Source of the DNA: Bdellovibrionales bacterium
GTDB lineage: Bacteria; Bdellovibrionota; Bdellovibrionia; Bdellovibrionales; JAUICD01
Direction: 5' to 3'
DNA length: 64,000 bases
NCBI GenBank assembly: GCA_965262715.1
Contig: OZ253553.1
Span: 1,065,169 to 1,129,168 of the forward strand
The notes under the pieces are model-generated. The model ran no database searches. It saw only the letters and a list, made by a program, of their open reading frames with translations, and was not told where the DNA came from. The position numbers were made by a program, and so were the translations under genes. Positions 38,367-39,334 of this stretch are shown here, in pieces. How positions within the stretch are numbered: position 1 is the stretch's first letter; every line of letters begins with the position of its first letter.

Positions 38367-38443
38367 GGTTCGGTAGCTCAATTGGATAGAGCACCTGCCT
38401 TCTAAGCAGGGGGTTCCAGGTTCAAGTCCTGGTCGAACCGCCA
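38367..38443 (+). tRNA. tRNA-Arg (anticodon TCT)
   Basis: 77-nt cloverleaf: acceptor GGTTCGG/TCGAACC, D-arm GCTC-AATTGGATA-GAGC, anticodon stem CCTGC/GCAGG with loop CTTCTAA, T-arm CCAGG-TTCAAGT-CCTGG, encoded CCA. Confidence 0.93.
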
Positions 38444-38604
38444 TCTTCTTGTTTCCCTAACATGTTATAAAAAAACGAAAAGATCCTCCTTACTAAAATG
38501 CATCAGGCTTTCTAGGCTTTGCCCTATTTGCCAAACGGCGTAAGCCAGTTTGGGGGCAATGCCAGAAAGTCACCAGAGGTGAGATGCATTTTAGTGAAAT
38601 AAGC

Positions 38605-38670
38605 CAATTGGATAGAGCACCTGCCTTCTAAGCAGGGGGCTTGCAGGTTCAAGTCCTGGTCGAACCGCCA
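38605..38670 (+). pseudogene. partial tRNA-Arg copy (D-loop to CCA), T-stem variant
   Basis: CAATTGGATAGAGCACCTGCCTTCTAAGCAGGGGGCTTGCAGGTTCAAGTCCTGGTCGAACCGCCA; lacks the 5' acceptor and D-stem strand; GCTTGCAGG replaces GTTCCAGG. Confidence 0.85.
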
Positions 38671-38831
38671 TCTTCTTGTTTCCCTAACATGTTATAAAAA
38701 AACGAAAAGATCCTCCTTACTAAAATGCATCAGGCTTTCTAGGCTTTGCCCTATTTGCCAAACGGCGTAAGCCAGTTTGGGGGCAATGCCAGAAAGTCAC
38801 CAGAGGTGAGATGCATTTTAGTGAAATAAGC

Positions 38832-38896
38832 CAATTGGATAGAGCATCTGCCTTCTAAGCAGGAGGTTCCAGGTTCAAGTCCTGGTCGAACCGCCA
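38832..38896 (+). pseudogene. partial tRNA-Arg copy (D-loop to CCA)
   Basis: Same extent as 38605..38670 but with the GTTCCAGG T-stem and two substitutions (GAGCATCTGCC, GCAGGAGG). Confidence 0.85.
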
Positions 38897-39063
38897 TCTA
38901 TGAGAAAAAAATTTCCCTAACATGTTATAAAAAAACGAAAAGATCCTCCTTACTCAAAATAAACAGATTTTCTAGGCAATGACCTATTTGCTGAGGGCAT
39001 TAGCCGTCAGGGTCAGTGCCAGAAAACAGCCAGAGGCTGGTTTATTTTGAGTGAAATACAATC

Positions 39064-39096
39064 GGCTTGCAGGTTCAAGTCCTGGTCGAACCGCCA
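39064..39096 (+). pseudogene. partial tRNA-Arg copy (T-arm + 3' acceptor only), T-stem variant
   Basis: GGCTTGCAGGTTCAAGTCCTGGTCGAACCGCCA. Confidence 0.8.
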
Positions 39097-39334
39097 TCTA
39101 TGTTAGAAAAAAATTTCCCTAACATGTTATAAAAAAACGAGAGGTATCTCCTTACTCAAAATAAACGGATTTTCTAGGTAATGACCTAATTGCTGACGGT
39201 AAAAGCCGTCAGGGTCATTACCAGAAAGTGGCCAGAGGCCATCTCAAAAGTCTTAAATTGTTATAAATAACTGTGCTACAAGAGACTTCGGTAACACTTT
39301 CTTCAAGGCAAGAGAAGATATAATTCTATTTTTG

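Follow-up and report, generated by a model that had tools for sequence, protein, structure and literature searches.

Why should an intact tRNA gene be followed by three partial copies of its own 3' part, set into a tandem array of short units? The question is raised by the tRNA-Arg(UCU) gene at 38367-38443 in a 64,000-nucleotide stretch of a Bdellovibrionales genome (contig OZ253553.1), and this whole stretch is called the window below. An earlier note on the window had described four integrase-less units behind the gene and had offered two explanations, namely miniature islands of the cis-mobilisable element (CIME) type stacked at one tRNA attachment site, or an amplified tRNA-linked structured-RNA locus. 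Our results showed that the units are made up of a hairpin-forming repeat of about 160 bp, here named E, which occurs in large numbers at sites other than tRNA genes. The interpretation that we favour, and hold to be probable, is that E represents a new family of mobile repeats, small, non-autonomous and with a fold specific to one strand, which colonised the 3' flank of the tRNA-Arg gene and was locally amplified there. The tRNA pieces would then be pseudogene debris of an old local duplication, rather than functional attachment sites or integrase footprints.

The layout of the array agreed with its earlier description. The last 27 bases of the tRNA-Arg gene, CAGGTTCAAGTCCTGGTCGAACCGCCA, occur exactly four times in the window (chance expectation 0) and end at 38443, 38670, 38896 and 39096, that is, at spacings of 227, 226 and 200 bp; ARAGORN and Rfam likewise called the one intact gene, and BLAST aligned the partial 3' copies behind it. 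In BLAST, tRNA positions 13-77 match 38605-38670 and 38832-38896, and positions 51-77 match 39070-39096; by eye, the homology can be followed from about position 10 in copies 2 and 3 and from about position 45 in copy 4. An invariant 23-mer, CCTAACATGTTATAAAAAAACGA, stands ahead of the structured region once per unit (four in the window, chance expectation 0), and Tandem Repeats Finder reported two periods, 227 (2.7 copies) and 202 (1.8 copies). The alternation of two T-stem variants, GGTTCCAGG and GGCTTGCAGG, and the palindrome TAACATGTTA at 38458-38467 were found as claimed, and the multi-helix element of about 105 nt is truly structured, with a fold z-score of -4.3 against shuffled sequence and with covarying helices. 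The parts of the array are the following.

38316-38344, + strand: promoter-like site (TTGATA, 17-nt spacer, TATCCT) 5' of the tRNA gene, from a consensus match alone
38367-38443, + strand: tRNA-Arg(UCU) gene (anticodon TCT), intact, CCA end encoded (ARAGORN; Rfam tRNA model, 68.7 bits)
38444-38601, + strand: E1, a dispersed-repeat copy that is complete (nhmmer, 99.8 bits over model positions 34-184; fold; alignments)
38602-38670, + strand: t2, a pseudo-tRNA piece of about positions 10-77 with T12 deleted (Rfam 22.6 bits; BLAST; alignment)
38671-38828, + strand: E2, exactly equal to E1 (alignment; nhmmer)
38829-38896, + strand: t3, a pseudo-tRNA piece of about positions 10-77 (Rfam 35 bits; BLAST)
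38897-39058, + strand: E3, a complete copy of another subfamily (nhmmer 125.3 bits; alignments)
39059-39096, + strand: CAATC, then t4, a pseudo-tRNA piece of about positions 45-77 with the variable loop, T-arm and 3' acceptor strand (27-mer; BLAST)
39097-39241, + strand: E4, ending at model position 165 (nhmmer 95.2 bits, model positions 27-165)

E1 runs from a shortened left end, TCTTCTTG, through the 5' module TTTCCCTAACATGTTATAAAAAAACGAAAAGATCCTCC and helices P1-P6 to the right end ...TTTTAGTGAAATA. Units 1 and 2 had been called identical, which is true of their element parts (38444-38601 and 38671-38828) and untrue of their tRNA pieces, which show three differences; the identity of E1 and E2 points to a recent duplication of the unit. 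The stems of E3 differ from those of E1 by compensatory changes. E4 is cut at about 39241 inside the 3' strand of P6, some 5 nt beyond the CCAGAGG loop motif, so that it has no 3' strand of the closing stem, and after CCAGAGG it is fused to CCATCTCAAAAGT, the start of a long-form variant seen at 25588. CCA-ending tRNA pieces flank E1 to E3, and there is none on the right of E4. The variable-loop variant of t2 is GGGCTTGCAGG, and t3 has the sequence of the intact tRNA-Arg of two relatives described below, L089 and L091 (GCATCTGCC...CAGGAGGTTCCAGG). The t4 piece is probably a 10-77 piece after internal deletion, as suggested by its retained CAAT and a GG microhomology. The units do lack an integrase, with no recombinase found among the open reading frames (ORFs) of at least 100 aa in the window. 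The site at 38316-38344 is the sole sigma-70-type match on the + strand of 38200-39500; no promoter was found inside the units in that region, and motif TGTTATAAA, tried as an extended -10 element, was dropped on that ground. Since the units have no promoter-like site of their own, transcription from the site 5' of the gene probably runs on through the array, which would then be co-transcribed with the tRNA.

The left side of E consists, in order, of a variable extension [A/T]T[T/C]AGAAGGA…, of TTTTTCC, of a short palindrome CCTTAACAT..TGTTAAG, which reads TAACATGTTA in the window, and of …GGATCCTCC. In the structured part, P1 is a long closing stem; next come three stacked helices, P2-P5, which form an arm that contains an internal loop and ends in a tetraloop, and then P6, a short hairpin whose loop motif, CCAGAGG, is invariant. 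The right end is sharp, at AGTGAAA(C/T)A, in forms such as …TTTTAGTGAAA(C/T)A, …TTTTAGTGAAACA and ...AGUGAAAC; the left end is variable, and the same families of left extension recur. As the left (TTAGAAGGA…TTTTTCC) and right (…AGTGAAACA) ends are unrelated, E has no terminal inverted repeats. A standalone 36-bp palindrome, such as an empty target site would present, was not found, every instance lying within an E 5' module. A sequence in the 5' module of all copies (window 38484-38495), GGATCCTCCTTA, is also very similar to GGATCACCTCCTTA at the 3' end of 16S rRNA, and the similarity takes in the anti-Shine-Dalgarno CCUCC; the opposite strand of GGATCCTCCTTA reads as a strong ribosome-binding site.

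The fold of E was examined in 23 copies from six genomes. RNAalifold predicted 43 pairs in a five-helix fold, and 29 of the 43 show compensatory changes; the paired cells amount to 97.4%, whereas shuffled alignments give 79%, with none of 500 as high as the real one, and sliding of the partners gives 31-52%. Even the near-orthologous pair of window E1 and the L089 copy L089_c differs by compensatory changes, C·G to G·C in P1 and A·T to G·C in P6. Among 299 distinct full-length copies we counted 10,299 Watson-Crick pairs, 435 G·U and 75 A·C, and in 78 cluster representatives G·U still outnumbered A·C by 144 to 51. The large excess of G·U over A·C indicates that one strand folds, and in the window this strand and the tRNA have the same sense. 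About 86% of copies have a GNNA loop on P5. The folded form may be RNA or single-stranded DNA, the sequence data being compatible with either. The fold is kept by selection, and the most plausible reason would be that the mobilising machinery recognises a folded single strand of one kind or the other.

To find further copies, a search pattern was drawn from the conserved helices (TTCTAGG…CCAGAAA…CCAGAGG). In the GTDB genome collection it returned at least 88 stretches, 80 among those listed being from OZ241865.1, a metagenome-assembled genome (MAG) of 2.57 Mb labelled 'MAG: Bdellovibrionales bacterium', where 138 matches on both strands are spread over the whole chromosome. A profile built from 97 copies (186 positions) and run on about 0.66 Mb of loci of this MAG detected at least about 300 full-length copies and several hundred fragments, so that E makes up at least about 2% of the genome (about 300 copies of about 160 bp). 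The tRNA-Arg genes of the window and of the MAG are 90.6% identical and their shared mobile genes have 50-64% protein identity; the window therefore comes from a relative of the MAG and not from the MAG itself. The profile also matched two places in the window away from the array.

25662-25767, + strand: diverged E copy with the loop CCAGCGG (nhmmer 44.6 bits; sequence)
48474-48610, - strand: a decayed E 5' module and, behind it, a stack of three right-end fragments (...TTTTAGTGGAAAA, TTTTGAGTGAAAC, TTTTGAGTGAAAAA) (nhmmer; sequence)

In the former, a hairpin of about 85 nt at 25588-25672 stands in place of the 5' module. This long-form variant, with the hairpin GAAGCCATCTCA…TGAGATGGCTTC for the 5' module, was seen at window 25588-25790 and at L089 11280-11490. 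Because profile copies occur across the MAG and elsewhere in the window, E is a dispersed high-copy family and is not specific to the tRNA gene. Rfam matched the tRNA model alone, both in the whole window at gathering thresholds and in the locus with E-values allowed up to 10, so the structured element is not a named RNA family, in line with the earlier note. The E pattern had 0 matches in IMG/VR, the plasmid and phage collections gave no blastn match to E, and in the JGI metagenome contigs the tRNA 27-mer had 0 matches and the E pattern 27, all of chance level but one marginal. No description of the family was found in the literature. E is thus a previously undescribed, clade-restricted repeat family.

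The placement of E in the MAG is that of an interspersed element. Copies lie in intergenic regions of all orientation classes, between promoter and gene start (L052), straight after stop codons and within multi-copy coding genes, for example PDDEXK_2 and 23S_rRNA_IVP, with a modest excess pointing to the downstream gene over pointing away (167 versus 96). Four-helix-bundle protein genes (23S_rRNA_IVP / Avd-like, multi-copy) are split by E at the same position in the MAG loci L004, L055, L011 and L043. Head-to-tail arrays are found, as are head-to-head pairs of about 340-450 bp (21 cases), and identical tandem units containing E and non-E sequence are present in L053 and L073 (period about 395 in both) and also in L060 and L015. 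Copies of E are also nested in one another. At L045 6461-6932, the 5' part of one copy (R1) and the 5' part of a second (R2) are followed by a complete copy and then by 3' fragments, in which a 26-nt right-end fragment pairs with R2 and the next right-end fragment with R1. The right junction of nested insertions is typically …GTGAAACA|GAGG, in the P6 loop, and the CAGAGG loop motif is where 71 fragments in the profile search begin. Tandem copies meet at GTGAAA-CAGAAGG-AAC, a junction that resembles the target CC-AGAGG. No target-site duplication was seen at nested junctions, and AGA(A)GG on both sides of the junction may be either a shared core or a degenerate duplication. A crude matching script gave about 93 nested pairings, 199 simple hairpins and 424 right-end fragments without a partner, which are rough figures because the regular expressions behind them are noisy. 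In some copies 14-nt inserts, CTCGCCTCGAGAGG, stand between AGAGG repeats in the P6 loop, singly or two at a time (L089 8500-8520 and 8690-8710; L090 7080-7120), which look like footprints or small duplications at a preferred insertion site. A second repeat family of the MAG is built from CCGGGAT heptamers in runs, with ccggcaacccggcatcagaagg after them, and as a rule lies inside E 5' modules (L036 4365-4500; L009 2167-2300), and diverged relatives of it occur in the window at 34555-34660, just after the PDDEXK_2 gene, and at 39330-39420, just after the array.

The comparison of the locus in relatives, which the earlier note had suggested, showed that units were gained and lost. An exact match to the LepA of the window was not on record, and five related loci were reached through LepA homologues 83-95% identical. 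In L089 (LepA 95%, lepA DNA 91.7%) the order is tRNA-Arg, E, AACCGCCA, E, tRNA piece 45-77, E; the last E belongs to the subfamily of window E1, and further copies lie beyond a 2.4-kb gap. L090 (LepA 92%) has tRNA-Arg, E, piece 10-77, an E-like unit and a degenerate piece 13-77 with the variant GGGCTTACAGG; its 10-77 piece shows the AGC|CAATTGG junction of the window, although the E before it is from another subfamily. In L091 (LepA 92%) the tRNA-Arg gene is followed by a single inverted E without a tRNA duplicate and then by a Transposase_31 gene, and L092 and L093 have no tRNA behind lepA. The tRNA-Arg 3' flank is thus a long-standing hot spot whose E content is different in every relative. 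The AGC|CAATTGG junction and the GGCTT(A/G)CAGG piece are common to species with lepA DNA 84-92% identical, which makes the tRNA pieces old. Behind each of these pieces comes the trailer TCTAT or TTTAT and then the left end of E, so the duplicated block consisted of the tRNA 3' part, the trailer and E. All pieces appear derivable from one founding piece (tRNA 10-77), and a single event would suffice: the 45-77 piece keeps CAAT before GGCTTG, and the 8-nt piece of L089 is explicable by deletion between two AACCG repeats (microhomology). A search of about 0.7 Mb of related sequence for fragments with a T-arm outside tRNA genes gave only the tRNA-Arg arrays and one E-less repeat, and no CCGCCA tag was found on E copies elsewhere. 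The E-less repeat is at L015 5209-5492 of the MAG, where, 139 nt beyond a tRNA-Ser(tga) gene and with no E in the interval, 55 bp recur as a perfect direct repeat, 31 nt of them from the 3' end of the tRNA and 24 nt from its flank, and it looks like the relic of a classical tRNA-gene integration.

The enzyme that might move E was sought among the genes of the window and the MAG. Pfam searches of the window ORFs of at least 100 aa turned up neither a recombinase of the tyrosine or serine type nor a reverse transcriptase, an HUH transposase, a TnpB gene or a gene of the IS110 type. As mobile genes, the window carries a 'nuclease family transposase' (PDDEXK_2) besides IS256, IS3 and an IS5-like element. 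E was considered as a MITE (miniature inverted-repeat transposable element) of one of these insertion sequences (IS) and rejected as such, since neither the IS256-like nor the IS5-like element has inverted repeats like the E ends, and around IS3 none resembling those ends was found. When the ORFs of 82 MAG loci were clustered, the clusters held ankyrin proteins, Rpn-like nucleases, pilins and one IS256, but no gene bounded by E ends, and the E pieces that retain the 5' module only are interrupted by (CCGGGAT)n runs, not ORFs. PDDEXK_2 / Transposase_31 genes often adjoin E in the E-rich MAG; a strict association was rejected, since L121-L123 carry such genes without any E. These PD-(D/E)XK genes (PDDEXK_2 / Transposase_31, Rpn/YhgA-like) are strongly expanded in the clade (window 33517-34515, + strand; five in 9 kb of L121), and the 65 database matches of this subfamily at E-values up to 1e-20 are nearly all from one ENA assembly group. 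A trio of HRDC, bAvd and RVT_1 genes, of the type of diversity-generating retroelements, adjoins a PDDEXK_2 gene at L122 5358-7211 (GCA_965243145.1).

From these data the following history is proposed. E would be mobilised by an enzyme encoded elsewhere in the genome and would spread genome-wide, entering or adjoining other E copies, often at the CCA|GAGG loop of P6. At the tRNA-Arg gene, an old partial duplication of a block of tRNA 10-77, the 5-nt trailer and E, with its right breakpoint at the recombination-prone right end of E, may have founded the array; recombination among the repeated E copies would then have expanded and remodelled it. Internal deletions could have shortened the tRNA pieces to t4 in the window and to the 8-nt piece in L089, gene conversion may have mixed the two tRNA variants, and E bodies would have been replaced by other subfamilies. 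Several points weigh against this account. No autonomous partner with E-like ends was found in the MAG loci or among the window IS elements, and many stacked right-end fragments (the 424 of the crude script) are left without a nested partner. The mobility of E is an indirect deduction from dispersal and nesting. The strand counts of E along the MAG chromosome have no clear replication-arm pattern, which lends no particular support to a single-stranded DNA transposase of the IS200/IS605 type; the GC skew was uninformative. The founding duplication would need its right breakpoint exactly at the right end of E, and in L090 the junction abuts an E of another subfamily, which would require either an event mediated by the E ends or a later replacement of the E body. 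Finally, the fold could equally mean a functional RNA, not only a selfish element.

Direct repeats of a tRNA 3' end around inserted DNA are the classical footprint of integration into a tRNA gene, and the CIME model would make the units miniature integrative elements whose attachment site holds the tRNA 3' part and which were stacked by a tyrosine integrase in trans; it implies a recombinase gene whose flank contains GCTTGCAGGTTCAAGTCCTGGTCGAACCGCCA. The direct repeats of the array match that footprint, the most diverged tRNA piece is the farthest from the gene, the L015 repeat is of this very type, and a circle of E plus a 10-77 piece could re-enter by recombination, which is formally equal to the unequal crossing-over proposed here. 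However, E occupies hundreds of non-tRNA sites on both strands and lies inside other E copies, and in about 0.7 Mb of related sequence it has neither a tRNA fragment beside it nor a tRNA tag outside the tRNA-Arg arrays. The junctions are old and the pieces are derivable from one founder, no integrase is encoded among the window ORFs, and the inverted E of L091 abuts the tRNA without any duplicate, so that stacking at an attachment site is, in our judgement, improbable. The other suggestion of the earlier note, an amplified tRNA-linked structured-RNA locus, came nearer to the truth than the CIME one, except that the link to the tRNA is local and not a property of the family. In its full form, in which E is a family of functional small-RNA genes, the array is an amplified locus using the tRNA promoter and processed with the tRNA, and dispersal is family expansion, it draws on the strong covariation, the excess of G·U over A·C on the strand sharing the tRNA sense, the P5 loops of GNRA/GNNA type, the conserved loop and junction nucleotides, the lack of a terminator between tRNA and array, the 167 to 96 bias toward the downstream gene and the copy between promoter and gene start in L052. 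It accounts poorly for units without a promoter of their own, for both orientations relative to neighbouring genes, for copies in coding genes and for the abundance of truncated and nested copies. Stable GNNA hairpins form in single-stranded DNA too, and a small-RNA function is compatible with the mobile-element reading; as a separate explanation we regard it as unlikely.

A retroelement comparable to a short interspersed nuclear element (SINE) would arise if read-through transcripts ending at the right end of E were reverse-transcribed and inserted together with upstream sequence, including the tRNA 3' part. The sharp right end, the variable and family-specific left extensions, the 5'-truncated fragments stacked head to tail, the 5'-truncated tRNA pieces anchored at CCA and the reverse transcriptase with Avd in L122 are all in keeping with it. 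But nested insertion accounts for some of the stacks, 3'-truncated pieces are as common, no reverse transcriptase is present in the window, no E outside the locus has a tRNA tag, and later deletions explain the tRNA truncation points (the AACCG microhomology in L089), which makes such an origin very unlikely. Repeats of 160-230 bp with identical copies such as E1 and E2 are prone to short-read mis-assembly, by collapse or by chimerism, yet the units are ordered, distinct variants and not all identical, and since analogous arrays with common junctions are present at the same locus in three independent assemblies of relatives, there is hardly any chance of an artefact. A more far-reaching idea is that E is a cis-acting, possibly RNA, component of an undescribed recombination system targeting hairpin loops. 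In such a system the AGAGG loop of the folded strand would act as donor and target core, joined by a clade-restricted enzyme that acts in trans and has so far had no tie to any mobile element, and the expanded PDDEXK_2 / Transposase_31 (Rpn-like) nuclease family would be one candidate; if true, this would be a new class of bacterial mobile element and not another MITE, although at present we look on it as a doubtful proposal. We keep to the interpretation of E as a mobile repeat that settled and multiplied behind the tRNA gene.

Other features of the window and the MAG lie apart from E. At window 55563-57531, genes for DoxX, an MbnB/TglH/ChrH-family enzyme (PF05114, E = 9e-100) and a DUF2063 protein look like a cluster for a ribosomally synthesised and post-translationally modified peptide (RiPP). 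Paralogue pairs in the window are the AAA_14/DUF4143 ATPase genes at 603-1736 and 5616-6722 and the ankyrin-repeat genes at 2136-2699 and 29746-30711, and ankyrin genes form the largest multi-copy protein family in the MAG loci.

The array itself is a by-product; of greater interest is the E family, together with the hairpin loop that it targets in its own copies. It is a caution for annotation that small repeats with partial tRNA duplicates beside them do not by themselves show integrase activity. E is relevant to genome stability in uncultured Bdellovibrionales-like bacteria because intergenic regions and 5' untranslated regions are reshaped and genes are disrupted by it. Earlier multi-copy structured elements, HEARO and omega RNA, proved to be parts of RNA-guided or structure-guided mobility systems, and because of such precedents finding the partner enzyme of E could be worthwhile.

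As compared to known systems, E is closest in kind to the small non-autonomous repeats of bacteria, which include RPE, ERIC, Correia/NEMIS, RUP and YPAL (PMC2229807). Like them, it is shorter than 200 bp, non-coding, A+T-rich and present in high copy in one lineage, with long predicted stem-loops and sites both between and inside genes (PMC2229807). This resemblance is one of kind. Unlike these repeats, E lacks terminal inverted repeats and TA ends and shows no visible target-site duplication, its fold is a multi-helix one with conserved loops on one strand and not a simple palindrome, it targets a loop in its own copies, and it showed no similarity to any library searched. With REP/BIME sequences, mobilised by RAYT, and with the IS that target REP (IS1397-like, IS110/IS1111), E shares hairpin repeats, insertion into hairpin loops, clusters and mosaics. 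REP elements are single hairpins of 20-40 nt, whereas E has about 160 bp and five helices, and the window has no RAYT (Y1 HUH) or IS110-type gene. The IS200/IS605-derived PATEs and the omega RNA (TnpB, IscB) and HEARO elements are likewise strand-specific in folding, multi-copy, mobile and structured in an RNA-like manner, and E further shares with PATEs its asymmetric ends, the hairpins close to those ends, the lack of inverted repeats and the lack of a visible target duplication; in E, however, no TnpA, TnpB or IscB gene and, in the window, no Y1 HUH transposase was seen, there was no Rfam match to the IS605-orfB or HEARO models, no clear replication-arm bias was detected and no conserved tetra- or pentanucleotide target was established. 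The tRNA islands and CIMEs of tyrosine recombinases have direct repeats of the tRNA 3' end, tandem stacking and copy numbers that vary between strains in common with the array, but the unit here is a genome-wide repeat, no integrase is encoded in the window, and the tRNA duplication is not family-wide. A classical MITE is small, non-coding and of high copy number, as E is, and has the terminal inverted repeats of a resident IS, which E has not. E therefore belongs to the known class of small structured interspersed repeats (RPE, REP/BIME, ERIC, Correia, PATE) while differing in the defining features of each family that could be compared, and it is distinguished by an unusually well supported, strand-specific fold and by insertion into its own copies.

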